Origin: Eledone cirrhosa
Lineage: Eukaryota
Assembly: GCA_964016885.1 (NCBI GenBank)
Contig: OZ024760.1
Coordinates: 5,890,001-5,954,000 of the forward strand
Direction of reading: 5' to 3'
Length of the DNA stretch: 64,000 nt
The notes under the pieces were generated by a model. It saw nothing but the letters and a program-made list of their open reading frames with translations, did no database searches and was not told where the DNA came from. Position numbers and translations under genes: made by a program. Of the stretch, positions 24,080 through 62,559 are shown one piece after another (position 1 is the stretch's first letter; every line of letters starts with the position of its first letter).

Positions 24080-24221
24080 CTGAAAAATAAAATAAAAAAC
24101 GAAAATCTAATTTATCAACAGTCAAATTATAATTTAACAACAAATTTAATTTATCAATTAGCAAAAACATTTTTTTTTAAATACAAATTATTTGAAAGCA
24201 GTACTCTCTGAGGTGAATGAG

Positions 24222-26999: not shown

Positions 27000-28645
27000 A
27001 ACATCCACCAGCTTGGCTGGTATTGCTTGGGGATCCAACCACATCAATTGGAGACGGATACTCCGGACATGACCCACTGGAAGGAAGGAGTGTCTGAGGA
27101 CTCTGCCTCCACGACCCTCCCAAGAATAAGGGGGTGAAGAAGATTTAATATGAAAACATCCAACAGCTTGGCTGGTCTCGCTTGGGGATAGAGCTGGATG
27201 AATTGGAGGCAGTTACTTCAGACATGACCCACTGGAAGGAAGGAGTGTCTGAGGACTCTGCCTCCACGACCCTCCCAAGAATAAGAGGGTGAAGAAGATT
27301 TAATATGAAAACATCCAAGAGCTTGGCTGGTCTCGCTTGGGGATAGAGCTGGATGAATTGGAGGCAGTTACTTCAGACATGACCCACTGGAAGGAAGGAG
27401 TGTCTGAGGACTCTGCCTCCACGACCCTCCCAAGAATAAGGGGGTGAAGAAGATTTAATATGAAAACATCCAAGAGCTTGGCTGGTCTCGCTTGGGGATA
27501 GAGCTGGATGAATTGGAGGCAGTTACTTCAGACATGACCCACTGGAAGGAAGGAGTGTCTGAGGACTCTGCCTCCACGACCCTCCCAAGAATAAGGGGGT
27601 GAAGAAGATTTAATATGAAAACATCCAAGAGCTTGGCTGGTCTCGCTTGGGGATAGAGCTGGATGAATTGGAGGCAGTTACTTCAGACATGACCCACTGG
27701 AAGGAAGGAGTGTCTGAGGACTCTGCCTCCACGACCCTCCCAAGAATAAGGGGGTGAAGAAGATTTAATATGAAAACATCCAAGAGCTTGGCTGGTCTCG
27801 CTTGGGGATAGAGCTGGATGAATTGGAGGCAGTTACTTCAGACATGACCCACTGGAAGGAAGGAGTGTCTGAGGACTCTGCCTCCACGACCCTCCCAAGA
27901 ATAAGGGGGTGAAGAAGATTTAATATGAAAACATCCAAGAGCTTGGCTGGTCTCGCTTGGGGATAGAGCTGGATGAATTGGAGGCAGTTACTTCAGACAT
28001 GACCCACTGGAAGGAAGGAGTGTCTGAGGACTCTGCCTCCACGACCCTCCCAAGAATAAGGGGGTGAAGAAGATTTAATATGAAAACATCCAAGAGCTTG
28101 GCTGGTCTCGCTTGGGGATAGAGCTGGATGAATTGGAGGCAGTTACTTCAGACATGACCCACTGGAAGGAAGGAGTGTCTGAGGACTCTGCCTCCACGAC
28201 CCTCCCAAGAATAAGGGGGTGAAGAAGATTTAATATGAAAACATCCAAGAGCTTGGCTGGTCTCGCTTGGGGATAGAGCTGGATGAATTGGAGGCAGTTA
28301 CTTCAGACATGACCCACTGGAAGGAAGGAGTGTCTGAGGACTCTGCCTCCACGACCCTCCCAAGAATAAGGGGGTGAAGAAGATTTAATATGAAAACATC
28401 CAAGAGCTTGGCTGGTCTCGCTTGGGGATAGAGCTGGATGAATTGGAGGCAGTTACTTCAGACATGACCCACTGGAAGGAAGGAGTGTCTGAGGACTCTG
28501 CCTCCACGACCCTCCCAAGAATAAGGGGGTGAAGAAGATTTAATATGAAAACATCCAAGAGCTTGGCTGGTCTCGCTTGGGGATAGAGCTGGATGAATTG
28601 GAGGCAGTTACTTCAGACATGACCCACTGGAAGGATGGAGTGTTT
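27000..28645. repeat. 155-bp satellite, about 10.5 copies, derived from a LINE 3' end
   Basis: Period measured at 27151/27306/27461. Continuous with the LINE fragment at 26820-27130. Confidence 0.92.
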
Positions 28646-29529
28646 GAAGACCCTGTCCGCTCTCCCGCCACCAGCACCACTACTCTCCCAAGGTATGGGT
28701 GGGTGAAGAAGAAGTAGAAATAAAGTGTCTACTCACAATGACACTATTTATCGGCAACAAGGATATGCAAAATGACAAGTCGGTTGGTCACTTCATAAAA
28801 AGGATTGTCACAAGACACAAAATATATTGTTTGGATTATTAGAAACAACAACAAAAACATACATCATCATTATTATTATTATTAATAATAATAATATTAT
28901 TAATATTATTATAATCATCATCATCATCATCATCGTTACTATTATCATCTTTGATTATGAGAACACCAAAAACATACTGCACTACCACCACCACCATCAT
29001 CATTATGCTTTGCAGCAAAGAGTTACGGCCCTTTATGGTCTGAGTTCAAATCCCGCCGAGGTTAACTTTGCCTTTCATCCTTACGGGGTCGATAAAATAA
29101 AGTACCAGTAATACACTGGATTATAATTGCTGGCCTTGTGCCAAAAGTAGAAACAATTATTATTGATGCTTTGATGCATAGAGTTACGCCCCTTGCCATT
29201 CTGAGTTCAAATCCCGCCGAGGTTAACTTTGCCTTTCATTTTTACGGGGGGGGGGGGTGAAATAAAGTACCAGTAATACACTGGGGTAATTGCTGGCCTT
29301 GTGCCAAAAGTAGAAACAATTATTATAGATGTTATCATCATCATCATCAGCATCATTGTTACTACCATCATCATCATCGTCATCGTTTTTAATGCCTATC
29401 TTTCACGCTAGCATGGGTTAGACGAGTTTGTCCCATTAGTGGCAAGTTTGGTCGGGTGACCATGCTTCGCTCGTATAGGACTGTTTCTGGCCTGGCTTTC
29501 TACGGCAAGGATGCCCCCCTTCCTAACAC

Positions 29530-31180
29530 CAACCACATTTACAGTGTGGACTGGGTGCTTTTTTGTCGTGACACCACATTTACAGTGTGGACTGGGTGCT
29601 TTTTTGTTGTGACACCACATTTACAGTGTGGACTGGGTGCTTTTTTGTCGTGACACCACATTTACAGTGTGGACTGGGTGCTTTTTTGTCATCACACCAC
29701 ATTTACTGTGTGGACTAGGTGCTTTTTTTGTCGTGACACCACATTTACAGTGTGGACTAGGTGCTTTTTTGTCGTGACACCACATTTACTGTGTGGACTG
29801 GGTGCTTTTTTGTCGTGACACCACATTTACTGTGTGGACTAGGTGCTTTTTTTGTCGTGACACCACATTTACAGTGTGGACTGGGTGCTTTTTTGTCGTG
29901 ACACCACATTTACAGTGTGGACTGGGTGCTTTTTTGTCGTGACACCACATTTACAGTGTGGACTGGGTGCTTTTTTGTCATCACACCACATTTACTGTGT
30001 GGACTGGGTGCTTTTTTGTCGTGACACCACATTTACTGTGTGGACTAGGTGCTTTTTTTGTCGTGACACCACATTTACAGTGTGGACTGGGTGCTTTTTT
30101 GTCGTGACACCACATTTACAGTGTGGACTGGGTGCTTTTTTTGTCATCACACCACATTTACTGATTTACTGTGTGGACTGGGTGCTTTTTTGTCGTGACA
30201 CCACATTTACTGTGTGGACTGGGTGCTTTTTTGTCGTGACACCACATTTACTGTGTGGACTGGGTGCTTTTTTGTCGTGACACCACATTTACAGTGTGGA
30301 CTGGGTGCTTTTTTGTCGTGACACCACATTTACAGTGTGGACTGGGTGCTTTTTTGTCATCACACCACATTTACTGTGTGGACTGGGTGCTTTTTTGTCT
30401 TGACACCACATTTACTGTGTGGACTAGGTGCTTTTTTGTCGTGACACCACATTTACAGTGTGGACTGGGTGCTTTTTTTGTCGTGACACCACATTTACTG
30501 TGTGGACTGGGTGCTTTTTTGTCATCACACCACATTTACAGTGTGGGCTGGGTGCTTTTTTTGTCGTGACACCACCTTTACAGTGTGGACTGGGTGCTTT
30601 TTTGTCATCACACCACATTTACAGTGTGGACTGGATGCTTTTTTGTCGTGACACCACATTTACAGTGTGGGCTGGGTGCTTTTTTGTCGTGACACCACAT
30701 TTACAGTGTGGACTGGGTGCTTTTTTGTCGTGACACCACATTTACAGTGTGGACTGGGTGCTTTTTTGTTGTGACACCACATTTACAGTGTGGACTGGGT
30801 GCTTTTTCTGTCGTGACACCACATTTACAGTGTGGACTGGGTGCTTTTTTTGTCGTGACACCACATTTACAGTGTGGACTGGGTGCTTTTTTTGTCGTGA
30901 CACCACATTTACAGTGTGGACTGGGTGCTTTTTTTGTCGTGACACCACATTTACAGTGTGGACTGGGTGCTTTTTTTGTCGTGACATCACATTTACAGTG
31001 TGGACTGGGTGCTTTTTTGTTGTGACACCACATTTACAGTGTGGACTGGGTGCTTTTTTGTCGTGACACCACATTTACAGTGTGGACTGGGTGCTTTTTC
31101 TGTCGTGAGACCACATTTACTGTGTGGACTGGGTGCTTTTTTGTCGTGACACCACATTTACTGTGTGGGCTGGGTGTTTT
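29530..31180. repeat. 41-42-bp minisatellite derived from a SINE body
   Basis: Unit GACACCACATTTACAGTGTGGACTGGGTGCTTTTTTGTCGT, growing out of the SINE at 29370-29570. Confidence 0.92.
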
Positions 31181-31191
31181 GTGTTATCAAC

Positions 31192-31241
<50 letters not shown>

Positions 31242-31305
31242 GGTAACACAAAACACCAAGCCCACACTCTGCCTGTCCCTTCAGTCTATCTAATTTCTCA
31301 TTCTT

Positions 31306-31341
31306 TCTTCTGATGAAGGACTAACATCCGAAACGTCAAGA
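31306..31341 (+). ncRNA. Minimal type I hammerhead ribozyme motif, copy 1
   Basis: TCTT-CTGATGA-A-GGA(CTAACA)TCC-GAA-ACGT-C-AAGA: stem I TCTT/AAGA, CUGANGA and GAAA core boxes, stem II, palindromic ACGU helix III, GUC cleavage triplet. Confidence 0.7.
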
Positions 31342-31418
31342 CCCTCTTCCTGCTATTTCAAGCGTTAACCTAATATATTCCTTCCATATACTATTTACCT
31401 TTTACATCCACACATATA

Positions 31419-31482
<64 letters not shown>

Positions 31483-31899
31483 TCATTTCATCATTTAATT
31501 TTACGTCCGCTTTTTCCCTGCTTGCCAGGGTGGGACGGGAACTGATGGCTTGATTTCTACAGCTGGATGCCCTTCCTAACACCAACCTCATTTACAGTGA
31601 GTGCTGGGTCCTTTTTTGCCGTGGCACCTCCACGACCACTTTGCAGTGGAATGATATGGACCCCAGTCCCTATCATCTCATTTCTACAGCTGAGTAAACT
31701 GGAGCAATGTGAAATAAAGTGTCTTGCTCAAGGAAACAACACATCACCCGGTCTGAGAATTGAACTCACAACCTTTCGATTGCAAGGCCAATGCTCTAAC
31801 CACTAAGCCATGTGCCTCCATATATATATAATGTAGGTAACACAAAACACCAAGCCCACACTCCGCCCGTCCCTTCAGTCTATCTAATTTCTCATTCTT

Positions 31900-31935
31900 T
31901 CTTCTGACGAAGGACTAGCGTCCGAAACGTTAAGA
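31900..31935 (+). ncRNA. Minimal type I hammerhead ribozyme motif, copy 2
   Basis: TCTT-CTGACGA-A-GGAC(TAGC)GTCC-GAA-ACGT-T-AAGA. Differences from copy 1 fall at tolerated positions (N7, stem II/loop II, H17). Confidence 0.7.
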
Positions 31936-32055
31936 CCCTCTTCCTGCTATTTCAAGCGTTAACCTAATATATTCCTTCCATATACTATTTACCTTTTACA
32001 TCCACACATATATATGAGTGTATATACATATATATATATATATATATAAAATATA

Positions 32056-32100
<45 letters not shown>

Positions 32101-32589
32101 GAGTGTATATACATATATCATCATCACCACGCTATCATGGGATAGACGAGTTGTCCTGTCATTATTATTATTGTTGTTCTTGTTATCATCTTCTTCATCA
32201 TCATCACCACCATCATCCTTACTACCATCATCATCACCACCATCATCCTTACTACCATCATCATCATCACCATAATTGTTACTATTATCATCATCATCAC
32301 CATAATTGTTACTATCATCATCATTATAATAGGATTGTCAGAGTCGTTAGTGCGTCAGAGTCGTTAGTGCGTCAGACACATATTCAACAGTATCTGTTCT
32401 GGTTCTTTACTCTCAGAGTTCAAATCCCCCCAGGGTCAGCTTTGCCCCTGATAGACAGCGCTCTCATTATAATATAGATTTCATTTTTATGTAGTTTAAA
32501 AAATACAAGATGGAGGAGAAGAAAAAAAACGACACACGGAAGAAAAATTGAAGAAAAAAGAAAAGAAAAACCATTCAAGATTGCTGACG

Positions 32590-33190
32590 CTACTATTATC
32601 ACCACAACCACAACCACAACCACAACCCAGGACCACTATCATCACCACCACCACCCATGCCACCATCATCACCACCCCAATCATTACCACCACCACACAA
32701 GCCACCATCACCACCACCACACAAGCCACCAAGCCACCATCATCATCACCACCACCACACAAGCCACCAAGCCACCATCATCATCACCACCACCACCAAG
32801 CCACCATCATCATCACCACTATCACTACCACCACCACACAAGCCACCATCATCATCACCACTATCACTACCACCACCACCCATGCCACCATCATCACCAC
32901 CCCAATCATTACAACCACCACCACCACCACCACCCAAGCCATCATCATCACCACCGCAATCACTACCACCACCACACAAGCCACCATCATCATCACCACC
33001 ACCATCACCCCCACCACCAAGCCACCATCATCATCACCACCACTATCACTACCACCCAAGACCGCCACAATCACTACTCTCACCACCACTCCCACCACCA
33101 CCACCATCACCACTCAAGATCCGCTGCTACTACCACCCAAGATAAGTGTCACCACCACCACCACCGCCACCACCACCACCACCAACCCTG
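32590..33190. repeat. CAC/CAT low-complexity tract
   Basis: Seen directly. Confidence 0.85.
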
Positions 33191-33634
33191 GCGGAGATGG
33201 AGGTGCGTTAGCGGTGGTGGGGATGTGTATGGTTTGATTACATTCTCCTCTTCCTGCCGACAAAATAAAAATTAAAAAAAGACTAAAAGAAAAGCCAACG
33301 AAAGAAGTGAGATAATTGTTGGGTGATGTCTGCATTAGTGTGTTTACATTAGATATATTTCTACTGATTGGAAGTGAATATTTGGTGTGAAGCTGTTCTC
33401 ACAATATGGCTGCCGCACAGGGGTAAATTGAACAACAACAATAACTACAATAACAACAATAACAACTACAATAACTACAACTAAAGCAGCAACAACAACA
33501 ACAACAACCATGTTGTGTTCTTGAGCAAGACACTTTATTTCACGTTGCTCCAGTTGACTCAGCTGTAGAAATGAGTTGTGATGTCACTGGTGCCAAGCTG
33601 TATCAGCCATTGCCTTTCCCTTGGACAACATCAT

Positions 33635-34200
33635 ATATATACTGTACATAGTGTATATATAGTGTATATAGTGTATATATACTGTACATAGTGTATATAT
33701 AGTGTATATAGTGTATATATACTGTACATAGTGTATATATATAATGTATATAGTGTATATATACTGTACATAGTGTATATATACTGTACATAGTGTATAT
33801 ATATACTGTACATAGTGTATATATATACTGTACATAGTGTATATATACTGTACATAGTGTATATATACTGTACATAGTGTATATATAATGTATATAGTGT
33901 ATATATACTGTACATAGTGTATATATAATGTACATAATGTATATATACTATATATAGTGTATATATAATGTATATAGTGTATATATACTATACATAGTGT
34001 ATATATACTGTACATAGTGTATATATACTGTACATAGTGTGTATATAGTGTATATATACTGTACATAGTGTATATATACTGTAAATAGTGTATATATACT
34101 GTACATAGTGTATATATACTGTACATAGTGTATATATAATGTACATAGTGTATATATAATGTAAGTAGTGTATATATATAATATATATATGGTGTATATA
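33635..34200. repeat. ~20-bp TA-rich minisatellite (TATATATACTGTACATAGTG) inside a SINE
   Basis: Flanked by a duplicated SINE segment GTCACTGGTGCCAAGCTGT.TCAGCCATTGCC at about 33583 and 34223. Confidence 0.85.
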
Positions 34201-34801
34201 TCAGTATATATCAGTTGTGACGTCACTGGTGCCAAGCTGTGTCAGCCATTGCCTCTCCCTTGGGTAACATCAGGGGTGTGGAGAGGGGAGACTGATATAC
34301 ATGGGTGACTGCTGGTCTTCTACAAACCTTGCCTGGACTTGTGCCTTGGAGGGGAACTTTCAGTCATGACCGAAGGGGGCCTTTACCCTTGTTGGTGGTG
34401 ATGATGGTGGCTGTAGCTGTGGTGGTGGTGGTAGCTGTGGTGGTGGTGGTAGCTGTGATGGTTGTGATGGTAGTGAAGGTGTTGGTGGTGGCTGTGGATA
34501 GAGGTAGCTACAGTGGTGGTGATGGTGTTAGTGGTAGTTGCTGTGATGGTTGTGGTGGTGGAGATGGCTGTGGTGGTTATGGAGGTGAAGGTGATGGTGG
34601 TAACTGTTGATAGAGGTAGCTACGGTAGTGGTAGTTAGTGGTGGTGGTGGTGGTGCTGATTGTGGTAGTGGTGGTGGTGACAGTGGTAGTGGTGGTGGTG
34701 ACAGTGGTAGTGGTGGTGGTAGTAGTGGTGGTGTTTATCGCTGTGGAGGAGGAGAAGATGGTGGCTGCGGTAGGGTGTGTGTGTGTGTGAGTGTGAGTGT
34801 G

Positions 34802-34870
<69 letters not shown>

Positions 34871-35373
34871 TCGGTTGGACAAGAAAGTCATTTTCTTCCG
34901 AGACTTTTTGACAGACTCTGCCAGACAGCCGGACAGCCAGACAGCCAGCCAACCAGACAGACAGACAGACAGACAGACAAGACAACCATTGTTTGGGATA
35001 GCAATTACTGAAGTAAATGTGATATACAGGCAAGAAGAATTAAGGTTAAACAAGTTTCACACGATTGGGGGCATTTTTCCTCTTCTTTTTCTCTTTCTCA
35101 TCCCCTACCCCCACCCCTACCCCCACCCCTACCCCGAAGGAAGAATGACCAAAGAGAGGGAGGGGGAAGAGAGGCAGCAGGGCAAAAGCTATATTCAAAA
35201 ATATACATAATTATATATATACACACATATACATACATAATTATATATATATATACACACATATACATACATAATTATATATATATACACACATATACAT
35301 ATATATATCGAAAAATGCATAATGGAAAATAAACTAAAAAGAACGAGAGTGAGGGGGAAGCAGGATTGTGCAA

Positions 35374-35421
<48 letters not shown>

Positions 35422-36480
35422 TTATATATATATATATATATATATTATATATTTATATATATAGTTTTATATATATTATATATTTATATATATATATAGT
35501 TTTATATATATATATTATATATATATATAGTTTTATATATATATATTATTTATATATATATATATATATATAGTTTTATATATATATATAGTTTTATATA
35601 TATATATATATATATTGTGCATATATAATGTTTAAAAAGTAAAGGATGGAAAAACAAGGATTGGATGTGAGGGGGGTTGATGGGGGGGGGGGGGGGGGGG
35701 AGAACGAGGAAGAAAAATGGAAGTAGAAAAATTAAATGAAAGACGGAAAGGAAAAACAAAATAGATGAAAAAGAAATAAAACAATTAGAAGCATAGAAGC
35801 AAATGAAAGCGTAAAAGAGGTGAGAGATGTTATTTTTTGTTATTTATAACAACATCCGGTATATCTACTATCACCTTGAAGTTTTTAAAGTAATTTACTG
35901 AGACAAAGGTATATGATGAGATGGTGATAGGTGAGGGTGAGGAAGGAGGTGGTGGGGTTTGGTGTGGGTCAGTGGAGTGGGTGAGGGGCGAAACGAGGGA
36001 AGGGGTGGGGTGGGGTGCTGGGGGGGGGGGGGGGAAGGAAAAGAAAAAAGGTATATGATGAGACACTGATAGGTATGGTTGTAAGGAAGGAGGTGGTGTG
36101 GGTTGGTGGAGTAGGTTGGGGGGGGGGGAGGTAAGGAAGAGATGCGGGGCGGGGGGAGGTTCCGTGGGGTGGACAGGACAGGTAAGGAAGGAAAAAAAAA
36201 AAGGTATATGATGAAACAGTGATAGGTGTGGGTAAAGAGGAGAGGGGTGAGGTGGTGGTGTGATGCGACGGAGTGGGGGCAGTAGAGTGGAAAGGTAAGG
36301 AAGAAAAAAGGTATATGATGAGACAGTGATAGGTGTGGGTAAGGAAAGGAGCGGGGAAGGTGGTGTGGGGCGGTGGAGTGGACAGGTAAGGAAGAAGAAG
36401 AAGAAGAAAAAAAGGGAGGATGAAGGGGGTGGCTGTGGGTGCAGAGGTGGTAGGTAAAAACAACAAAGATATATCGGAGA

Positions 36481-36516
36481 TATTTAAGCCAGCCTGGCTT
36501 CGCAGCAATGATCAGA
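36481..36516 (+). promoter_or_regulatory. Candidate TATA-like box and initiator of the nested gene
   Basis: TATTTAAG at 36481 and TCAG about 30 nt downstream, about 95 nt before ATG 36607. Motif spacing only. Confidence 0.35.
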
Positions 36517-36606
36517 AGCCCACTAGCAAAGGGAGAAGAAAGAAGCAAGTGGCATATATTCACTGGTGGCTACTACTGTACAACGTTCCCAGTTTTTTTC
36601 ATTATA

Positions 36607-37323
36607 ATGGAGACGGCATTCGGTTTGGGATTGATCCTGCTTTTATACAGCGCCGCCACTGTGCCTGCGAGGCCAAATACGGGACCAGCTCGTTCTGCTG
36701 AGGAAGAAACGAATTTCGAAACAATGGTTCGATTTTTGGTGAAGAAGCTGAATTCGAACGAACACCTTCTACAATTGATGGAACACAGGTTTGACAAAAT
36801 GTCTGGAAATATAAAAATACACGCTCTGCTACTGCAAAGACTGAAGAATGAACTGAAAAGTTACAGAGCCAGGAAGCAGAAGCTTAGCGGAAACATAACT
36901 AACAAGGATAATACTTTATATTCAAACAGCGGCACAAATAAACGGAGGGTGCTCCACAGAGCAAGACGTCAGGCGTCTTACAGTTTCTTAAGTCCTGAGA
37001 TACTCGAAACACTTTCACAACAGGAAAGGATTGGCGTCAACGACACGCCTATGGTCTTTGCCAGTGGTCCACCACCGCTGTTTCACCAGGAGTTGATATT
37101 CGAGAGTGCCCCGGACGTCCAGAGCACTCCGGAGCAAAACATTGAAAAAGACACTACGGAAGAGACCGTAACAGTGAGTACCACTTCTTCTTCGACAAGC
37201 ACCACACTTGATTTGAAACCCAAACCTCCACACCCCGACGGGGAAATTAAACCAACTGTTGCTCAGAGCGAAGGACAGCCGCAGTTGCAGCCTCAACCAC
37301 CACCACAGCAGCAGCAGCAGCAG

Positions 37324-37361
<38 letters not shown>

Positions 37362-39900
37362 GCTTCAACCACAACAAATACAACTTTCACCTCAACAACT
37401 GCAAGAATACCCTCAACAACCACCACCACAACAACAACAACAACAACAGCAGTACCTTCAACCACTACAACAATATCTAGGATCAGACTACTTTGTTCTG
37501 CCACTGCCGAGATCAACTCCCTTGCCAGGGGCTGCACCAAAAGAAGCTGATGAAGAATACGATGGAGATCCGTTCTCAACAGGGAACTCTTGGCGCAGAA
37601 CCAACAAATCCTTGGAACCAGATGAAACGGCAGACCACAGAATTAAGAAAAATTTCGGCAGAGATTCGGAGGCAGACGAACGTGATAAGTCCAGGTACAA
37701 TTCACGTCTGCGTGCATTCGGAGATCAGCGTGGATATAAAAGGAACTACAAAAGCACGCAACGAAAAGACGGCGATTACGAAATATCGGATAAGGATGAG
37801 CGATCGTTCGTCCGTAGCAGTGAATACGAAAACTCGGAAACGAGTGGATTATCAAGAAAACGGAGATTTCAACCAATGGCCATTCGTGCTCACGATCCGA
37901 GGGGTGATTTTACACCTGAAATGAAATATCCTTTACAGTCGGATAAAGCACAGGATACAGAAGGTCTGCCTTCCGAAAATGCGAAATCTAGTAATGCAGG
38001 TATTGTCTGGATTTCGAAAGACAGCCGAAAGGAACTGGGTACCACTGAGCCAGAAACGAGATCTGGACAACAAATTTCCCAGGATAACTTGACAATATTC
38101 CAGAGAAGCGATGGTTCCCCTCAAGATTATCCAGGAAATAATGAAGCAAGGACGCCCAACAATCTGCCAGAGATGGATGACACTAAAACACTGCAGAATA
38201 ATAATGATGACGAGGGAGGAAAAGAGCAACAGAGCCCACAAGAAGGTGACACAGGGGACATGAAGGGAGGTAACTCACAGAACCAAGCAGGAACTGATGA
38301 TCATAAAAACCCTTATCTTTACCCGGGGATAGATGAGCATGGGATCCCACACGCTTACCCCGGCGTCGACGAACACGGAATTCCACATCTCTACCCAGGA
38401 ATCGACGAACACGGCATCCCTCATCTTTATTCCGGCATAGACGGATACGGGATCCCATACGGCGGCCAGGTGGGGGAGGAGTATGGCACACACCTGCTGC
38501 CCATCGAGGAAGTGAACAGCCACAAACATAACATGCCGCCGGGTGTGCAAAACGGCATGATAGACAAGAACAGGTACGAGGGGATGTACCCGGGCGAAGG
38601 TTTCCTGAACACTCCGTACGGGGCAGAAAACTACCTGGATTTCCCACTCGACGGGGAAGCCAGTCAACTGAACATTCCAGAGGAGGAAGAGAGAAAAGAC
38701 GGATCTGATGAAAGCAGCGATGAAGACACTAAGGGTGGAGTATTGTCTCACAGTAGCAAATACGGTGGAGTTAGGCACATGGAAAGACTGAGGGCTGGAG
38801 ACATCATATCCTCGGCAGAAAGGCCAACATTTAATATGGATCTTTATCCATCGGAATCCAACACTCTGTCCGATAACAGCGCACAAGCTGACAAAGACTC
38901 GGAAGAATCAGGAGAGGCCCCATCTAACAGCGGCAGAAGTTACCATGGAGATTACCACGATCCTATTAGCAACCAATTGTTCATGTTCAACAAGGAATAT
39001 CCCGACAAGAATTCGCTGATGCACAAGATCCAGATGGCCGCGAAGCAAAGGAACCCAGTGTATCCGAGAATGGATCAGGAAGACAGTCGTCAAACCAGCG
39101 ACAAACAGAGCACGAATTACGGAAGACAGAATTACAATGTCAACCAAAGACAAGACAGCAACCTTAACAGGTATGTACCAAATTCTAACAGACAAGGATT
39201 CCATAGGGACTTCAGACGTCGAAACTATGATTCAATGAATAGAAGAGGGATCCACGATACAACTCTAAACAGATTTGGACATGGCTCGATTCCTGACCAC
39301 TCTGGTTACGATAAAAATTACGATCGGTTAAACTATGAGTCTAGATTGTTCGGCAAGCCGCTTTACAACGCGAATGGTCAGAAAGGGTACTACCACCATG
39401 GTCAAAATAGGGGTTACAACAGCAACCCTTTCACACTGAATTATAACAGCCAACCCAACTACAACATGGGTGCGAGGCGAAGCAGGCATATGGCTCAACC
39501 CAACAGCAGGCAGAACCTGCATTCCAGGCAACAGAGGATGTACAATGCCCCATTTGGTAGCAGGTATAACACAAAGAGTGGATACAGCGCTGACAACAGC
39601 TACTACAACAACAACAACCACCAGCAGCAGCAGTACTACGACACCGGGAGAAGCAACAGAGTGGAGAACAGCTACAACCCGCACCACAGGGGCACTGCTC
39701 ATCCTGCTTCAGACGAACAAGACGAAATATATGGCACCGAAGCCTATTACAACAACAACAACAACAACAAAGTCGTCAACAATGACAGCAGGGAAGTAAG
39801 AGATGAACAAAAGAACAACAACAACAACAACAACAACAAATATAACAACACACATCATGACAGTGCTGAGAGAAGAAACAGTAATTATTTCATGTATTAA
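36607..39900 (+). CDS. Intronless nested gene: uncharacterised secreted low-complexity precursor, 1097 aa (ORF open from 36508)
   Basis: 3.3-kb stop-free frame in otherwise stop-rich DNA, with higher GC than the flanks. ATG in ataATGG context is followed by signal-peptide-like METAFGLGLILLLYSAATVPA. RARR and RKRR sites. 12-aa repeats diverge mainly at synonymous positions. Confidence 0.85.
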
Positions 39901-40245
39901 AGACATCATGTAATTTGAAGAGATAGCTTCTGTCCAGGTGTTAACATGAATGACCAGCAGAAGGTATGTGACTGTAACACACACACACACACACACACAC
40001 TATCACACATACACACACATATAATTATTATTATCATCATCGTCAGGGCGGTGAATTGACAGAATCGGTAGTGTTGGACAACATGCTTTGCAGCATGGAG
40101 TTACGGCCCTTTACATTCTGAGTTCAAATTTCGCCAAGGTTAGCTTTGCCTTTCATCCTTACAGGGTCAATAAAATAAAGTACCAGTAACGCACTGCGGT
40201 CAATTTAATAGCCTGTGTCTATGTCAAAAAAATATTTTTATCATC

Positions 40246-40276
<31 letters not shown>

Positions 40277-42839
40277 GGGCGGTGGATTGGCAGTATCAGT
40301 AGAGGGTCGGACGCCATGTTTTGCAGCATAGAGTTACGGCCCTTTATGATCTGAGTTCAGATCCCGCCGAGGTTAACTTTGCCTTTCATCCTTACGGGGT
40401 CGATAAAATCAAGTACCAGTCACGCACTGGGGTTGAATCAAACGACTTTCCCCTCCCCCACAATTGCTGGCCTTGTGCCTATATAAGAAAGCATTATTAT
40501 TCATTTGCACACAGGGATAATTTTATTACCAGTGAACCCCTTATTTAGTTATGTAACCTTAGACAGTACCGTATTTACTTGAATATAATATCAGAAAACA
40601 GTACAGCACCCATGACTTTTGGAAACATTTTTTTCATGCTCAGAGTTGCTGCAACGTGCAGCAGTCGTTAGCTGTCGGGACACTGCATCCTTCAAAACTT
40701 CCATGCATCCTGAAATTCGCCAACACTACACCTGATATTCTCCACCCCCCATACACAAGCACACATGTGTATGTGTGTGTGTGTGCGTGTATATACCATT
40801 ATATCGTGACTCATACACTGTTAACTTTCCTGACCTTTGTACATTATTCTATGTACTACATATGCACCTTTGATGAGTTGTAGTGCACCTGAGCACTGTA
40901 CACAATAATTTTCATTATATCATAAGAGCGGTGGATTGGCAGTATCGGTAGAGGGTCGGACGTCATGCTTTGACGCATAGATTTACGGCCCTTTCTATTC
41001 TGAGTTCAAATCCCGCCGAGGTCAACTTTGCCTTTCATCCTCACGGGGTCGATAAAATAAAGTACCAGTAATGTACTGGGTAATTTCTGGCCTTGTGCCA
41101 ATAGTAGAAACAATTATTCTATGTACTACATATGCACCTTTGATGAGTTGTAGTGCACCTGAGCACTGTACACAATAATTTTCATTATATCATGAGAGCG
41201 GTGGATTGGCAGTATCGGTAGAGGGTCGGACGTCATGCTTCGACGCATAGATTTACGGCCCTTTCTATTCTGAATTCAAATCCCGCCGAGGTCAACTTTG
41301 CCTTTCATCCTCACGGGGTCGATAAAATAAAGTACCACTAATACACTGGGTAATTGCTGGCCTTGTGCCAAAAGTAGAAACAATTATATCATAAGCCGAC
41401 CCCACTATTTTATGCCTGCAAAATGGGCAAAAATTCAAACCCCGTTTATAATCCAAGACAGCATTATGTTTACATGGCGTATATATACCGACCTCCACCC
41501 CATTTTACCATCGATTTTTTAGGGCGTCACATATTATTCCTGGGCTTCTATTCTAGTATAGACTGTCATAAGATCATCACTGTGCAAATGAAAAATAATA
41601 ATAAATATATTTTTTACTATTATTATTATTGTTATTACTATTATTATTATTATCAAGGTGATGGATTAACAGTAATCAGTAGAGCGTTGGACAACATGCT
41701 TTGTGGCATTGAGTTACGGCCCTTTATGTTCTGAGTTCAAATCCTGCCGAGGTTAGCTTTGCCTTTCATCCTTACGGGGTCGACAAAATAAAGTACCAGT
41801 AACACACTGGGGTTGATTTAATTGGCTTACCCCTTTCCCCTCAAATTATTGGCCTTGTGCCAATGTTGCCGAGGTTAACTTTGCCCAGTAATGTACTGGG
41901 TAATTGCTGGCCTTGTGCCAACAGTAGAAACAATTATTACAGGGGGTGGGGATAAAATAAAGTACCAGTAATGCACTGGGATTGATTTAATCAACTTTCC
42001 CCTCCCCCAAATTGTTGGCTTTATGCCTAAATCATAAACCATTATTTCATCTTTACAGGATGGGAGTGGGGTCGATAAAATAAAGTACCAGTAACCCACT
42101 GGGATTGATTTAATCTATTTCCCCTCCCTATCAAATTACTGGCCTAGTGCTAAATGTAGAGATAATTAATTGTTTCTACTTTAGGCACAAGGCCAGCAAT
42201 TACCCAGTGCATTACTGGTTGTAGAGATAATTAATGGCTTATAGTCCTGAATGCAAACCTTTTTAAATTCCAATCCACTCATGGCTACCATCTCAGTTTT
42301 TATATTATACGAAAATTGTGGTTTAAACTGTTCACATTTAAATCTAAAACCTTTCATTGTAATTTTTATGTAGCAAAATGTTTTCCCAAAGTTATGTTCT
42401 AAACATTACCTTGTTAACCCTTTACCATTAACATTACTCTATATTTACTATCATATTTTCATGGTAAACACTTTATATCACATAATTATCTCACATAATA
42501 TTGAATCTATGAGATTCAGATATTTTTTATTTTGAGAACAATACCTTAACATCAGTATGACAGTATGAGCAGCCGGTTACAGCCAGTTTCAACAGAAAGA
42601 GGTGAGAGAATTCTGGCTGGATATAGCCTGTTTAAATGCTAAAGGGTTAAATCTAAAACCTTTCATTGTAAATTTTTATGTAACAAAATGTTTTCCCAAA
42701 GTTATGCTCTAAACACCTTGTTAATGAAAATGAAGGTTATTTTATTAAGCAGTCAAAATTCTGGATTATTTTTTGTTTAGAAATTAACCAAAACATGTAG
42801 GTAGTGTTTTGTTAGAAATATGGTCTTTCACACACACGA

Positions 42840-42874
<35 letters not shown>

Positions 42875-43324
42875 GATATAAATAATAGTGTTCGGTAATA
42901 TATTTTAATTCATAATTCATTCTACCTGTGAATAATCTAGAACAGTAGGAGTTTATATAATATATTTTTTAATTGTATGTAGCCATGTGTACAGGTTATT
43001 ATAATAAATTACTGTATTTTGAGCTGATATAATTTTTTTATCTACATCTTTCCATTTTTCATATTTAAAAACGAATTTCTTTGTATGTATGTATCTATAT
43101 ATACAGATGTATATATATGAAAAATTCAGGACCCCAGCAACTGAGCTCTGGCCATTTCAATAGCTAGATCCGAACTGTTCGGATCTAGCTATTGAAAGGG
43201 CCGGAGCTCAGTCGTTGGGGTCCTGAATTTTTCATATCATCCACTCTACTATTCCAAGTATTGATTACTCTGGTGAGTAATGGGTTAACTGGTTTTTACC
43301 GCCTCCATTTATTGTTAAGATTTG

Positions 43325-43391
<67 letters not shown>

Positions 43392-43704
43392 TATAGATAT
43401 ATATATGTGAAAATGAAGTAATTCCGTCGGAAAGGTCCAGGAAAAAAGAGTGCTCTATGTAGGTTACAGAGCTTAATAGTTATGTAATAAACAACATAAG
43501 GCAATTATTTCATTTACCAGTGGTTTCTTGAAGGCAAACAAATTTTGCTTTCAATCAACAGAATGAAAACATGAAAAAAAAAAGGTTTTTAAAATCCAAT
43601 GTCAATAAATACACCAGGATTTTTTCATTCTGATGATTGAAAGCAAAATTTGTTTGCCTTCAAGAAACCACTGGTAAATGAAATAATTGCCTTATGTTGT
43701 TTAT

Positions 43705-43782
<78 letters not shown>

Positions 43783-44146
43783 TCGCTAAAAATGAAGGGA
43801 ACTCCTTCGTAAAGTAAGATAAATAAAAAAAAAGCGAAAGAATGACTTCGCTGATGGTTGATGTTAATAATTCAAATCTTTACAATAAATCATTATTGAT
43901 ATTGGTTCTAGTAAGTCCTTGTTAACTATCTGGGGAATTTTCTCGCATTTGCTTCGATTTTCAAATTGTTCGATTTTCAAATTGAAAATCACACCAAATG
44001 CGAGAAAATTCCCCAGACAGTTAACAAGGACTTACTAGAACCAATATCAATAATGATTTATGGTAAAGATTTGAATTATTAAATAACATCAACCATCAGT
44101 GAAGTCATTCTTCCCCCTTTTTCTTGACATATATATATATACACAT

Positions 44147-44178
<32 letters not shown>

Positions 44179-44497
44179 GCGAAAAGTAAATGGAAACAAC
44201 ACAGCAAACAATAAAATACAATGAAGAAATGTATTAGTTTAATGCTTGATATAGTAGGGAAAGAGTTTATATATATCTATATCTATATCTATACACACAC
44301 ACACATATACATATGAACAATTCGCAACCCCGACGGCTGAGCTCTTGCTGTTTCAATAGCTAGATGGATCTATTTGTTAAAATGGCAGGAGCTCAGCCAT
44401 CGGGGTCCTGAATCCTTCATATTACCCGCTCTACTGCCCCAAATATCGAGTACTCTGGTGAGTAATGGTCTAACTGGTTTTTAATGCATCCATTCTA

Positions 44498-44531
<34 letters not shown>

Positions 44532-45066
44532 ATTAAAGGTTAATTAGCCACTAATACTTAAACATCTCAATGAATGAAATCTCCCAGAGAAGCAATCTTA
44601 TATATTAAAATTAAATGAGAAAAAACTCTAATTCTGGGAGTATTAACAAGATTGACAAAAAAGTATTCTATCTAACTTCACTTATATATAGATCTCCCTG
44701 CCATGGTTTCATATGGGCAAGAATTATTATTGGAACCACCAATAATTCAAGAATCTGCCATACTCTTGAGGGGAGTTTAATTCTTCAAGTCTAAGAGAAA
44801 TGGAACAAGATATAATAGTACATGTAGTGTTGCATTCTCAAATTTCAAAGGTATTATATATATATATATAAATATAACGAAGGAAATGTGGTAAGGAACC
44901 AGGTGGACCATAACGCACCAAAGTACTCAATACTTAGGGTAGTAGAGTGGGTAATAGGAACAAGTAGGACCCCAACGGCTGAGCTCAAGCCGTTTCGACA
45001 GCTAATTCTGGACAGAATTAGCCGTCAAAACGGCTTGAGCTCAGCCGTCGGGGTCCTACTCGTTCC

Positions 45067-45097
<31 letters not shown>

Positions 45098-45223
45098 AGA
45101 TCAAAAGATGGTTAAAAGAATAACCATCTTTTGATCTTATATTATTTATACTCCAGTCCTACAAACTGTAGAGTGCTACTTATCCGATATTTGCATTGTG
45201 CTACAATAAAACTCACCTCCTAC

Positions 45224-45259
<36 letters not shown>

Positions 45260-45423
45260 ATATATGTATATATATATATATATTTATATATACATGTAGT
45301 ATGTACATACGTATATGATTGTAAATTATATATATATATAAACATAGTATGTATGTACATATGTGTATATGCATATATCTGTGTGTGTGTGTATATATTA
45401 TATTACAAAAATGACTGCTACAG

Positions 45424-45629
45424 CAGGCATGTCAAACATGCAGTCCAAGGACTGCATGTGGCCCTTTACAAGCACACCTGGGGCTCGCACAAAGGTTTTT
45501 ACAGCGCGAGCGTAATATAAAATAAAAAATATTAGTTGTAATGTGCACAATTAGTTGTCATGTGTGGCCCTCAGACAGCACATATGTCACCCATGTGGCC
45601 CTCGGGAGACCTTAAGTTTGACATGCCTG
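45424..45629. mobile_element. hAT-type MITE
   Basis: Perfect TIR CAGGCATGTCAAAC/GTTTGACATGCCTG. TSD TGCTACAG/TTCTACAG. Confidence 0.8.
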
Positions 45630-46246
45630 TTCTACAGGACTAAAGCTATTTCATTCATAAGAAATCATTATAATAATAATAAATAATGAAATTATTGTGT
45701 ACAGTGCTCAGGTGCACTACAACTCATCAAAGGTGCATGTATAGTACATAGAATAATGTACAAATGTCAGGAAAATGAACAGTGTATGAGTCATGATATA
45801 ATAATGATAACAATAATGAAATATTGTGTACAGTGCCCAGGTGCACCACAACTCATCAATATATACCATATATATATATATATATATATATACCATATAT
45901 ATATATATATATATATACCATATATATATATATATATATATTTTTATACTTGGGGAGGGTCATATTTGCGTAATATTGCCAGAATTAATAACAGAACACA
46001 CTCACTGTTTGGTTGGTTTCCGCTTCTCGTTGTCTTTTATATCTGCGATCTAACTTACTCGGTCCTCAATGTTGCCATTGACCGACCGACGGTCAAAAAT
46101 AATACAGATACAATATAGACACAAACAGTCAGTCAATGGCAACATTGAGGACTGTTATTAATTCTGGCAATATTACGCAAATATGACCCTCCCCAAGTAT
46201 AACAATATCTGTTTCGACACACGATTTCATATAAAAAACCTCGCTA

Positions 46247-46306
<60 letters not shown>

Positions 46307-46406
46307 CACTAAATGTAGAGCTTCAAATTGTATCAATTTGAGCAGCTTCAATAAATGGGCACCACAACTCAATAAGTCAACCCCCAAGATAACATGTTCT
46401 TTAGAC

Positions 46407-47238
46407 CAGCAGTCACCAACCTTTCTGACCTCACGGACCACTAAATTCATAATTTTAAATCTCACGGACCACTAATATGAATTTTTTTTAAAAAAGATAA
46501 ATACATTTGTAAAATAAAGATCAGAGAACTTCCATTTTATTAAACAATACTGAAGCGTACGTGTGTCATATTGTCGATAGATGATACATATCTGTAAAAG
46601 TCTTTCATGGATGTTAGTTCTTTACTGAGGAGAAACAGTTTTCAGAGGTATTATAAAATATATTTTAGGACGGTGAATTGGCAGTATCGGTAGAGGGTTG
46701 GACGCCATGCTTTGACGCATAGAGTTACGGCCCTTGCCATTCTGAGTTCAAATCCCGCCGAGGTTAACTTTGCCTTTCATCCTTACGGGGTCGATAAAAT
46801 AAAGCACCAGTAATACACTGGGCAATTGCTGGCCTTGTGCCAAAAGTAGAAAAAACAATTATAAAATATATTTTAACCAAATATTATTTTTGTTTTATTA
46901 TTAATAAAACAAAGGGCAGTGGATTGGCAGTATTGGTAGAGAGTCGGACGCCATGCTTTGCAGCATAGAGTTACGGCCCTTTATGATCTGTGTTCAAATC
47001 CCGCCGAAGTTAACTTTGCCTTTTATCCTTACGGGATCGATAAAATAAAGTACCAGTCACACACTGGGGTCGATTTAATCGACTTTCCCCTCTCCCAAAA
47101 TTGCTGACCTTGTGCCTATATAAGAAACCATTATTAATAAAACATAAAAATTGCAAATAATGTCCAAGTTTTTCTGTGGACCACCAAGATTTTCTCTCAG
47201 ACCACCAGTGGTCCACAGACCACCGGTGGTGCCCACTG
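46407..47238. mobile_element. hAT-type MITE with two nested SINEs
   Basis: Imperfect TIR CAGCAGTCACCAACC/GGTGGTGCCCACTG. TSD CTTTAGAC/CTTTAGAT. Confidence 0.65.
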
Positions 47239-48557
47239 CTTTAGATTATTGAAGCTATCACAGTTATGGCCACACTGGAGCACTCATTATTATTATTTTG
47301 TCACACAGCATTTGTTGCTAGTAATGTAATACCAGCGCCACCTCAGTCCAGTGGTTGTGGACCAAGGTGGCGCTCTCAATTGTCAAGAACCTTTTTAAGT
47401 ATCCTGGCAGTTCCAAGATGTTGGCCCCCAATACAGCTTTCAGTTCTGGTGCTCACATTACCAAGACGCCCCAACTACAACAGGGGTCACATCAACCTTT
47501 TTCATTGCCCACAAATGTTTTATCTCTATTACTGCTACTATTATTACAAGTTTGGTAAAGGGCGGTGAATTGGCAGTAATCAGTAGAGTGCCAGACAATA
47601 TGATTTTTCAGCACGGAGTTTCGACCCTTTACGTTCTGAGTTCAAATCCCGCTGAGGTTAGCTTTGCCTTTCATCCTTACGTGGTCGATAAAATAAAACA
47701 CCAGTAATGCACTGGGGTCAATTTAATCGACTCCCCACCAAAAAAAAATTGTTGGCCTTGTGCCTAAAATAGAAATCATCATTATTATTATTAATGGCGG
47801 TGGATGAACAGTGTCAGTAGAGAGTCGGACAATATGCTTTGTGGCATAAAGTTATGGCCCTTTACGTTCTGAATTCAAATCCCGCCATGGTTAATTTGGC
47901 CTTTCATCCCTACGGGGTTGATTTAAGCGACTTCCCACCCCCATGCAAAAAAAAAAAAAAAAAAAAAAAAAAATTGCTGGCCTTGTGCCTAAATCAGAAA
48001 CAATTATTATTATTACTATTGTTACAAGTTTGATAATTTTTAAAACAATTATTTTAAATTTTCTTTTCATTATTTTTCTTGATGATGATGATGATGATAT
48101 TGCATTAAAAAAAAAAAAATATTAACAATTTCCACAAAAATAAAAATAAAAACAAAGAAAACAACAAAACAAAAACAATTACTATAAATTACTAATTGTA
48201 AATATATAACCAACCCCTAATGAGGTAACACTAATTAATCTTTTGAGAACCTCCTATTGTATATCTTTCCTTATTTGTTGTTTGTTGTCAACAAACGAGC
48301 AACAATAAAGGGAAAAAAAAAAAAAATCTATGTGCTAATAAAGAAAATATGAGCAAAAAAAATAAATAAAATATAAATAAAAACTTGTGGAAACTTGAAT
48401 TAAATATTTTAGTAAAATGATATGATATGATTATTTTCACCTCAACCACTTTTTATTTGGGTAGACTTGTTGGATGTGTAATGTAAATGTGAGAGGATGG
48501 CAGTTCTTGGATGAGATGAGGAAGAAATAGGGTTTAACACTTTAGTATTTACATTAT

Positions 48558-48591
<34 letters not shown>

Positions 48592-49059
48592 GGGCATCCA
48601 GCTGTAGAAATCAAGCCAAAATCAGTTCTCGTAGGAGCAAGACAAGGTCACCCGACCTGGCATTGCCCACAACAGGACAACCTGTCTAACCCATGCTAGC
48701 GTGGAAGAATGGATGGAAAACGGTGATGATGATGATGACGATATATAGACGGTGGATTGGCAGTATCGGTAAAGCGTCGGACACCATGTTTTGCAGTATA
48801 AAGTTACGGCCCTTTATGTTCTGAGTTCATATCCTGCTGAGGTTGGCTTTGCCTTTCATCCTTACGAGGTCAATAAAATAAAGTACCAATCACACAGACA
48901 AGAGTCGATTTAATCGACTTTCCCCTCACCAAAATTGATGGCCTTGTGCCTAAATCAGAAACTATTATTCAATATATACTATTGTATTTTTGCAGTAAAG
49001 GCTTTATCTCACATAAGATCGAATCTATGAGATTTTGATATCATTTAATATGAGGGGCC

Positions 49060-49730
49060 AATTTGAACAGAAAGAGGTTAGAGAATTCTGGCCAGATATG
49101 GCCTGTTTAAATGCTAAAGGGTTAAGTTCGTAACATCATTATGTGTGGCCGGTTACAGCCAGTTTGAACAGAAAGAGGTGAGAGAATTCTGGCCAGATAT
49201 GGCCTGTTTAAATGCTAAAGGGTTAAGTTCGTAACATCATTATGTGTGGCCGGTTACAGCCAGTTTGAACAGAAAGAGGTGAGAGAATTCTGGCTGGATA
49301 TGGCCTGTTTAAATGCTAAAAGGTTAAGTTCGTAACATCATTATGTGTGGCCGGTTACAGCCAGTTTGAACAGAAAGAGGTGAGAGAATTCTGGCTGGAT
49401 ATGGCCTGTTTAAATGCTAAAGGGTTAAGTTCGTAACATCATTATGTGTGGCCGGTTACAGCCAGTTTGAACAGAAAGAGGTGAGAGAATTCTGGCTGGA
49501 TATGGCCTGTTTAAATGCTAAAAGGTTAAGTTCGTAACATCATTATGTGTGGCCGGTTACAGCCAGTTTGAACAGAAAGAGGTGAGAGAATTCTGGCTGG
49601 ATATGGCCTGTTTAAATGCTAAAAGGTTAAGTTCGTAACATCATTATGTGTGGCCGGTTACAGCCAGTTTGAACAGAAAGAGGTGAGAGAATTCTGGCCG
49701 GATATGGCCTGTTTAAATGCTAAAGGTTTA
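49060..49730. repeat. 101-bp tandem array of a TTAA-MITE terminus, about 6.5 copies
   Basis: Period measured at 49065/49166/49267. Each unit ends in TAAATGCTAAAGGGTTAA or a one-base variant. Confidence 0.9.
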
Positions 49731-50199
49731 AGAGGAAACTGATGTGGTGTACAAGAGAGAAGACTGCAGTGGTATGAACATGTGGGACATATGCTACGCA
49801 TGGATAATGAATAATGGGTGAAGGGGTCCCAGGAAATCCCAGTAGAAGGAAGCCACATTAGGAGTAGACAAAGAAAGAACTGGGCAGATGTGGTGAGAGC
49901 TGATCTGAAATCACTGAGACTCACAGAGGAGATAACAAACGAAAGCGACGAGTGGAAAAATGGTGTGCTGAGAAGGACTTGTTCAAACCATGCAAGTGTG
50001 GAAAAACAGACGTAAAAACAATGATGATGATGATGACTGTGTCCACACCTTCCAACTATTGTGAGCGCAGTATGGCCAAATGGTTTAACCTGTTGACTAC
50101 CGCGTATATTTTACACAGCTACAGTTGCTGTGCCAGGTTTTTTTCAGTAAAATGACTATTTTGATTGACAAACGTCACATCAATAAACTAGTAACCCCA

Positions 50200-51131
50200 T
50201 CTAGCTTTGAAGTTATCAACTGTTGGAAACGAGCTCATAACTTTGAAGTTATGAATCAAAAGGCCTTAAAATTAACCTGGCTAAGACTAAAGTTCTAGTT
50301 TGTAGGAAAGAAAATAAGGCGCCGGTCCCTTCCGGGAAATGGCCATGCTCAGTGTGTAGGAAAGGCGTAAGTAGAAACTCCATTTTATGTCCCAAATGCA
50401 AAGTATGGGTGCATAAAAGATGTAGTGGGATCACAGGTAAGCTAACTAAGAACATAGATTTTACATGTGGCCGGTGCTCTGGTGCAATAAGTAGCAGCAA
50501 GTGCCCACAAAATACTAGCTCTTTCAATTGCACAGAGGGTTCTATAGAAATAGTGGACAGCTTCCGTTACCTGGGTGACAAAATCAGCAGTGGGGGAGGG
50601 TGCTCTGAAAGTACAGTAGCTAGAGTCAGAACTGGATGGAAAAAGTTCAGAGAGCTTATACCACTATTAGCCGCTAAAGGGTTCTCCCTAAAAATGAAAG
50701 GCAGGTTGTATGATGCCTGCATACGAACAGCAATGTTGCATGGCAGTGAGACCTGGGCATTGTGTGCAGAGGATATACGCAGACTAGAGAGGAACGAAGC
50801 TTGCATGCTCCGCTGGATGTGTAATAGTAATATACGTGAACGGCAAAGCATAAACTAACTAAGGGAAAAATTAGAAATAAGAGGGATCAGATGTTGTTTA
50901 CTCGAGAGAAGGCTACGTTGGTACGGTCACGTGATGCGCATGAAAGACGACAGCTGTATAACAAAGTCCAGGGCAATAAAGATAGACGGTAGCCACGGAG
51001 TAGGCAGACCCAGAAAAACCTGGGACGACTTGATAAATTCTGACCTCACACACTTACACCTCTCCAAGACAATGTCACTGGACCGAGACCTTTGGCGGTA
51101 CTCAGTAATAGAGAAGACCCGCCTTACCTAA
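50200..51131 (+). mobile_element. 5'-truncated RTE-clade LINE, RT C-terminal half with Cys-rich insert
   Basis: Encodes GLKINLAKTKV, CSVC..CPKC..WVHKRC..CGRC, FRYLGD, MLHGSETW, RRLRWYGHV and GRPRKTW. One in-frame TAA at 50856-50858. Confidence 0.88.
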
Positions 51132-62540: not shown

Positions 62541-62559
62541 GGGTTGGGTGTTGTTTAAC

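Follow-up and report, generated by a model that had tools for sequence, protein, structure and literature searches.

What is the long, uninterrupted open reading frame (ORF) that lies antisense within an intron of the DNAJC21 gene of the octopod Eledone cirrhosa, and what might its product do? The window analysed here comprises 64,000 nucleotides of contig OZ024760.1 (assembly GCA_964016885.1, positions 5,890,001 to 5,954,000 of the forward strand). An initial annotation, made from the sequence of this window, had described an intronless gene of 1,097 codons for a secreted polyprotein, and its account of the locus was confirmed: the single-exon ORF lies in the 27,894-bp intron 9, the other 11 introns of the host gene measuring 131-3350 bp. 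The nested ORF is a real, conserved gene that is misnamed in databases and uncharacterised. We estimate a probability of about 0.45 for what we consider its best explanation, namely a secreted, disordered proprotein that would be phosphorylated by Fam20C, cut by furin and condensed into an extracellular matrix.

The ORF (positions 36508-39900, + strand) encodes 1,130 amino acids from its first ATG and 1,097 counted from Met 36607; in 200 base shuffles of the coding sequence (CDS) the longest ORF was 214 amino acids and the mean 109. Three different parts of the protein, searched against the 3.0-Gb genome, each gave one real locus. Given an intron full of simple repeats and a window with other repeat-made ORFs, the frame might be suspected to have arisen by chance, from repeats or as a transposon or viral remnant. 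Yet the gene is present in one copy, carries no transposon domain and no second hydrophobic stretch (hydropathy is at most 1.03 after residue 30), and is far longer than the ORFs of shuffled sequence. This origin, which we regard as most improbable, is refuted by orthologues in distant relatives that are open and conserved at the level of individual motifs. Twelve weak genome matches (E 0.006-0.9) to the region of the His repeats were set aside, the loci inspected (L005, L006, L008, L009 and L011) being simple repeats or minisatellites. One of them, L009 (G000:C17:40925322-40928501), is a 33-bp tandem array with several frames open over >3 kb, probably a minisatellite.

A word-based search of 5.8 billion proteins, in which the best candidates (7999) were scored, retrieved four orthologue clusters: Octopus sinensis (XP_036368395/6), Argonauta hians (GAB1606299) and two clusters, P0003 and P0004, which we infer to be from squid or cuttlefish. 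Their aligned identity to the Eledone protein is 78%, 64% and, for the last two, 40% each, with the frames open throughout; P0003 and P0004 are 85% identical to one another and 38-41% identical to each of the three octopods. The gene had been called unrecognised, which needs correction: annotated predictions of it already exist in O. sinensis and Argonauta, and RefSeq carries a prediction of this protein as 'GATA zinc finger protein 14-like'. That name can be rejected, since no cysteine follows Met 36607, as the initial annotation had observed, or the matching Met of the four orthologues (0 in 5/5), making a four-Cys finger impossible, and there is no Pfam match. The Argonauta model (P0002) is without two blocks seen in all the other sequences, one covering the end of the coiled coil and furin site 1 and the other at approximately residues 795-867; these gaps are probably a gene-model artefact, with false introns placed within a single-exon gene.

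No relative outside the four clusters was found in protein, profile, PDB or fold searches. A HMMER profile run over 1.84 billion representatives gave four matches, two of them input clusters and two repeat-driven chance matches that were dropped (P0017, a P450 with a tandem repeat, and P0018, a bacterial-type protein with a His repeat). An N-terminal profile searched against longer proteins returned the same four clusters only, and a search among shorter proteins gave no match. None of the five sequences matched any Pfam family, the best PDB sequence match was a generic coiled coil (E=0.12), and Foldseek with a model of the N-terminal 138 residues found nothing at E<=0.001. In the ESM Atlas, the best score for the whole protein (0.77) was at chance level, and residues 1-150 gave nothing usable. 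Given these results, it is quite improbable that the protein belongs, in strongly diverged form, to a known family such as a molluscan shell-matrix or a secreted coiled-coil one, even though the sequence is mostly low-complexity, the word-based searches scored the best 8000 candidates and the profile was built from five sequences. The initial annotation had asked whether the frame is disrupted in relatives or matches a known family or a transposon; it is open in the relatives, and no such match was found. No paper was found for the orthologue accessions or for peptide strings, in a literature search whose coverage excluded most subscription journals and bioRxiv supplements. The supplements of PMC9712504, PMC10337964, PMC7693380, PMC10142993, PMC9815951 and PMC13425148 held no trace of the protein, which is a weak negative as most studies use their own gene identifiers; that of PMC10337964 lists one GATA-named protein, different from this one. 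The brain marker LOC118767670, considered as a candidate, was dropped, as the available part of its paper describes it as a membrane protein.

The order of parts along the chain was as first described (Table 1). Met 36607 directly precedes the sole hydrophobic stretch of the protein, and entry into the endoplasmic reticulum (ER) is very likely. Beyond the signal peptide, the 14 a/d positions of the heptads between residues 41 and 86 are almost invariant, and the heptad pattern was equalled by 1 of 2000 shuffles, which supports the helical segment noted initially. AlphaFold2 placed helices at the heptad region with low confidence; the mean predicted local distance difference test (pLDDT) score was 33 for the whole protein and 49 for its N-terminal 138 residues. 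A trimer prediction for residues 28-100 scored 0.02, which counts neither for nor against bundling. RX[KR]R sites number one or two per protein and are aligned across the orthologues, the region of the second (residues 414-420) being 100% identical in the distant pair P0003/P0004. Furin cleavage after residues 121 and 420 is predicted with high probability. Dibasic pairs are more frequent, with 19 overlapping pairs in the Eledone protein; of these, the ones shared with O. sinensis and the two distant orthologues lie at six places (residues 46, 89, 120, 417-420, 696 and 1089). A KRR at residues 112-114 and a polyglutamine/proline (polyQ/P) tract, both listed initially, are indeed present here, but the KRR has no counterpart in the distant orthologues, and the polyQ/P tract occurs in octopods alone.

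Cleavage at the two furin-type sites would give a basic piece of about 100 amino acids (residues 22-121, isoelectric point (pI) 10.3-11) and two acidic pieces of 220-300 and about 670 amino acids (pI 4.7-5.6). The third piece has a single internal dibasic pair, at residue 696, that Eledone shares with O. sinensis and the distant pair; the product is better described as a proprotein of three large pieces than as the 'polyprotein' of the initial annotation. The whole protein has a pI of 5.3-5.9, and 92-97% of scored segments are predicted to be unfolded across the five sequences. Conservation is distributed in islands: compared with the distant pair, the His repeats are about 60% and the acidic block 69% identical, and the long stretches between islands 18-27%. 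Among common residues, Tyr is best retained (25/60), followed by Glu, Asp, Gly, His and Arg; Val, Ala and Ile are poorly kept. One conserved Tyr, residue 318, lies in an acidic patch in all five sequences.

Which modifications does this conservation point to? The Fam20C motif S-x-E occurs 13 times, compared with 7.2 +/- 2.4 in local shuffles (p=0.024), in line with the many such motifs noted initially. More telling is its retention. In O. sinensis and the two distant orthologues alike, 10 of the 13 motif serines are retained, compared with 13 of 82 other serines (Fisher p=2e-5), and S-x-E ranks top in conservation among 57 residue pairs; control spacings of S and E are kept in 0/7, 2/8 and 1/5 cases and the reversed E-x-S in 1/9. 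The middle residue is variable at five of the ten kept motifs. The genome contains two Fam20 loci (G000:C12:26515611-26520239 and G000:C1:408457756-408478243), the former with Fam20C as best match (exon-level E=5e-42 and 1e-40). Phosphorylation of S-x-E in the Golgi is thus a well-founded prediction, likely to be correct. According to the portions available of two studies, Fam20C is active in molluscan shell formation and S-x-E marks shell matrix proteins (PMC5824888), and S-x-E is also the dominant phosphomotif of neuropeptide precursors (PMC4857386). Because it marks both classes alike, the motif cannot separate a matrix protein from a neuroendocrine one.

For a matrix protein, the following sequence of events can be proposed. 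The chain would enter the ER, where the coiled coil would bundle precursor chains; Fam20C would then phosphorylate them, and furin would cut them in the trans-Golgi into the basic and the two acidic pieces, possibly with release of a short C-terminal peptide as well. The basic piece would pair with the phospho-acidic pieces through opposite charge. The acid-His-Gly-Tyr repeats, titrating near pH 6, would allow pH- or metal-sensitive association between an acidic granule and the neutral exterior, the Arg/Tyr tail would add weak multivalent contacts, and the pieces would condense into a matrix from a gland or epithelium. Coiled-coil bundling, charge pairing, His-repeat association and the tail contacts are held with less confidence than secretion, cleavage and phosphorylation, and we favour them only somewhat. 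As to the tissue, our guess is a structure that both octopods and squids possess, such as the statolith or cupula or a buccal, skin, egg or spermatophore layer.

We prefer a matrix protein over a peptide precursor because the pieces are large (about 100, 300 and 670 amino acids) and mostly uncut, because the tandem His/Gly/Tyr repeats lack intervening basic sites and have a lineage-specific copy number, because there is no conserved amidation signal, and because Tyr, Gly and His are conserved. By our pattern, the acid-His-Gly-Tyr units number 5 in each octopod and 9-11 in the distant pair, with no conserved basic sites between them. Of the features of classical neuropeptide precursors, G-dibasic is absent from the three octopods, and no conserved basic sites set the repeats apart as paracopy peptides. 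In squid beak proteins, as described in the accessible part of PMC11931252, condensation is driven by His/Tyr repeats. Several observations weigh against a matrix protein. The gene is single-copy, unlike the clustered material genes known in cephalopods; reflectins, suckerins and beak proteins form tandem multi-gene clusters, as far as the available text of PMC9068888 goes. The density of S-x-E is low (13 in 1076 amino acids), and the pI of the protein is mild for a mineral-binding one. As in prohormones, four of the ten conserved S-x-E motifs have a conserved basic site no more than eight residues away, and the last dibasic site leaves a short peptide at the C-terminus. The structure models are of low confidence, and the conservation statistics come from few independent lineages (P0003 and P0004 being so alike) and a low-complexity alignment.

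A granin-like neuronal or endocrine precursor is a possible, if doubtful, alternative; it would condense in dense-core vesicles at acidic pH, package cargo and be cut into short conserved peptides. The single copy of the gene agrees with this, as do the conservation islands right behind the cleavage sites, the S-x-E motifs adjoining four basic sites and Tyr 318, which could be sulfated. The coding sequences of SCG2 and VGF likewise occupy a single exon. Granins, however, are Glu-rich, and tandem His/Tyr repeats are no granin feature, whereas the present protein is rich in Asn, Gly, Tyr and His, with Glu making up just 6-8%. Its conserved dibasic sites seem rather few, the 670-residue piece is nearly uncut, and neither a granin Pfam family nor the granin signature pattern was matched by any of the five sequences. 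In the sections available to us, PMC11196111 describes for Drosophila Spar (Sparkly, CG4577) a combination that matches the present one, namely a signal peptide, no Cys, an acidic pI, polyglutamine, basic sites, unamidated products that are not paracopies and a narrow taxon range; chromogranins are described as disordered and condensing at pH 6.1 (PMC9526250, seen in part), and the prevalence of S-x-E in neuropeptide precursors points the same way. As far as these sources go, the granins (secretogranin II, VGF and chromogranin B) and Spar share with our protein the signal peptide, acidity, disorder, few or no Cys, basic sites and phosphoserine, the last being predicted in our case. Our protein shows no homology to them in sequence, and its predicted cleavage sites are of furin type, where theirs are numerous dibasic pairs. 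It is also twice as large as Spar and has His/Gly/Tyr repeats together with a tail of Arg, Asn, Tyr and Gly.

Alternatively, the chain could chiefly carry a short signalling peptide, or a small number of them, acting as hormone, pheromone or gland product; the main candidate is the C-terminal heptapeptide, and the remainder would be spacer. The last seven residues do follow a dibasic site in all five sequences, with fixed length and an invariant N, F and terminal Y, and the Gln or Glu behind furin site 1 could cyclise. This is nevertheless unlikely: only 3 of the 7 residues of the heptapeptide are identical between the octopods and the distant pair, and the coiled coil (66% identity), the His repeats and the acidic blocks are better kept than would be expected of a spacer.

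How does the protein compare with known secreted phosphoproteins and cephalopod materials? Proteins of the SIBLING/SCPP group are disordered, cut into large pieces and have a large coding exon. In addition, SIBLING/SCPP members (DMP1, DSPP, MEPE and enamelin) and molluscan shell proteins bearing S-D-E are, as predicted for our protein, secreted Fam20C-type substrates with S-x-E in an acidic context (PMC5824888, in the part available). The present protein differs from them in having no homology, far fewer phosphosites and an N-terminal coiled coil; RGD, found in two of the five sequences, is not conserved. An improbable version of the matrix explanation is that a coleoid-invented family arrived at the SIBLING design independently and provides a main matrix phosphoprotein of the statolith or statocyst; its furin-freed, phosphorylated acidic pieces would condense with calcium and template aragonite. 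The statolith/statocyst is the calcified organ common to octopods, argonauts and squids. Statolith matrix proteins are little characterised, judging from the accessible part of PMC6597576, and a search for statolith sequence data retrieved none.

Squid histidine-rich beak proteins (HBPs), suckerins and reflectins, as described in the source text available, share with our protein the restriction to cephalopods, disorder, richness in His/Gly/Tyr or Arg/Tyr and self-association, which is a prediction in our case. Repeats of the pentapeptides GHGxY and GAGFA are a feature of HBPs (PMC11931252, same portion). All five sequences are free of GHGxY, GAGFA and GLY, contain at most one GGY and show no reflectin repeat MD-x5-MD; GHGY occurs three times and once in the distant pair. 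The protein is hence no beak histidine-rich protein. It further differs from all three groups in its acidic repeats and single copy, and it occurs in octopods, in which, by the available text of PMC9068888, HBPs and suckerins were not found; the same text reports 1597 cephalopod-only genes in Doryteuthis. On present evidence, we would therefore describe a new lineage-restricted secreted precursor that bears none of the sequence marks of granins, SIBLINGs, beak proteins, suckerins or reflectins and resembles the first two in its presumed workings. Conservation among the orthologues also supports the broader proposal of the initial annotation, a lineage-restricted, convertase-processed, disordered precursor of Fam20C type with no assignable family. 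A misnamed database entry thereby becomes a defined family restricted to cephalopods, for which the cut and phosphorylation sites are predicted exactly. Should it prove to be a matrix protein, distant cephalopods would share a structural secretion from a single-copy gene, in contrast to the known material genes, which are clustered and found in squids alone, and the acidic His/Tyr repeat would represent a novel motif for self-assembly. A granin-like role would make it a candidate scaffold of dense-core vesicles in the largest nervous system among invertebrates.

Table 1. Features of the nested gene and its host in the window (positions within the window; 5/5, all five sequences).
Feature	Position	Strand	Basis or conservation
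In-frame upstream ATG stretch, 33 codons	36508..36606	+	Start used by the RefSeq O. sinensis model; context of both ATGs examined
Single-exon CDS, 1097 amino acids, predicted >90% disordered	36607..39900	+	Mean pLDDT 33; FoldIndex-type score <0 in 94% of scored segments
Predicted signal peptide, residues 1-21, likely cut before shared R-P	36607..36669	+	Hydropathy >1.5 at N-terminus
Invariant R-S-A-E-E-E, possible monobasic cut then S-x-E	36691..36708	+	5/5
Predicted coiled coil, residues 38-90, seven heptads, Asn and His in core	36718..36876	+	66% identity to distant orthologues; helix pLDDT ~50-62
Furin-type site 1, RARR (RAKR in distant orthologues), then Gln or Glu	36958..36969	+	4/5; region missing from Argonauta model
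Conserved new N-terminus behind site 1, S-P-E motif	36970..37011	+	79% identity to distant orthologues
Thr/Ser tract, then polyQ/P tract (CAG/CAA repeats)	37153..37476	+	PolyQ missing from distant orthologues, octopod-only
Furin-type site 2, RKRR (RQRR in Argonauta)	37855..37866	+	5/5
Conserved islands behind site 2, residues 421-442 (68%) and 462-473 (83%)	37867..38025	+	Identity to distant orthologues
Acid-His-Gly-Tyr repeats of 11-12 amino acids, Y-x-G-x-D/E-D/E-H-G	38314..38511	+	Pattern count
Acidic block, two S-D-E motifs, ten invariant residues	38698..38730	+	Alignment, 5/5
Short predicted helix pair, residues 786-813	38962..39045	+	pLDDT 51-61
Arg/Asn/Tyr/Gly-rich low-complexity tail	39052..39696	+	Composition kept; ~25% sequence identity to distant orthologues
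S-x-E, dibasic site, 7-residue C-terminal peptide N-x-x-aromatic-F-x-Y, stop	39862..39900	+	Layout identical in 5/5
Host gene DNAJC21 (zuotin-type J-protein, two C2H2 fingers), 13 coding exons, 591 amino acids	16643..63672	-	Exon tracing, Pfam
DNAJC21 intron 9, 27,894 bp, phase 2; otherwise simple repeats, minisatellites and copies resembling short interspersed nuclear elements (SINEs)	24080..51973	-	Exon tracing

The 33 codons upstream of Met 36607 are probably a 5' leader and not coding, because this Met is the sole start common to all five sequences. They are in frame in O. sinensis as well. Among the 13 members of cluster P0004 are proteins of near-identical body with three different upstream extensions, which join 13-18 residues before the shared Met, and the O. 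sinensis orthologue is one sequence under two RefSeq accessions. Both observations fit alternatively spliced 5' leaders, which would be indirect evidence of transcription. The ORF stretch is present in three runs of one study, of unrecorded kind and none listed as RNA. That the gene is intronless is shown for the coding sequence and probably applies to that part alone. Immediately upstream, positions 36440-36606 are single-copy, with a TATA-like element near 36483 and weak splice acceptor candidates at 36505, 36515 and 36592. Farther upstream, a single-copy island amid repeats (33185-33430) ends close to a putative splice donor of the + strand (about 33423), just before which lies a YY1-like motif; the island is, speculatively, a candidate for the nested gene's promoter or for a first exon without coding sequence. 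The observed/expected ratio of CpG is 0.77 in the ORF (36607-39900) and 0.45 in the remaining intron, and may reflect low germ-line methylation of the nested gene.

The host gene was traced through exons from 63672 down to 16643, which give one open frame with all 12 introns of GT-AG type. Pfam matched five of the seven host exons scanned, and DnaJ, zuotin-homology and C2H2 domains flank the ORF on both sides: the first two lie in the upstream exons, and the C2H2 fingers, both below the Pfam cut-off, in exons 8 and 13. We take this domain order to be that of DNAJC21, and the name of the host gene rests on it. Antisense intronic genes are common in animals, and such nesting is ordinary. Besides the nested gene, the ORF list contained no other non-repetitive ORF of at least 150 amino acids in the rest of intron 9; the inventory of its repeats (simple repeats, minisatellites and SINE-like copies) covers the left part. 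Outside the host gene, a 399-codon ORF at 463-1662 is generated by a 48-bp tandem repeat and is, on present evidence, not a gene. Three minisatellite arrays, with repeat copies 93-98% alike, enlarge intron 9: 27000-28655 (155 bp, 10.7 copies), 29532-31184 (41 bp, 39.9 copies) and 49057-49732 (101 bp, 6.7 copies). An array of the 41-bp type apparently also occurs near 61700-62570.

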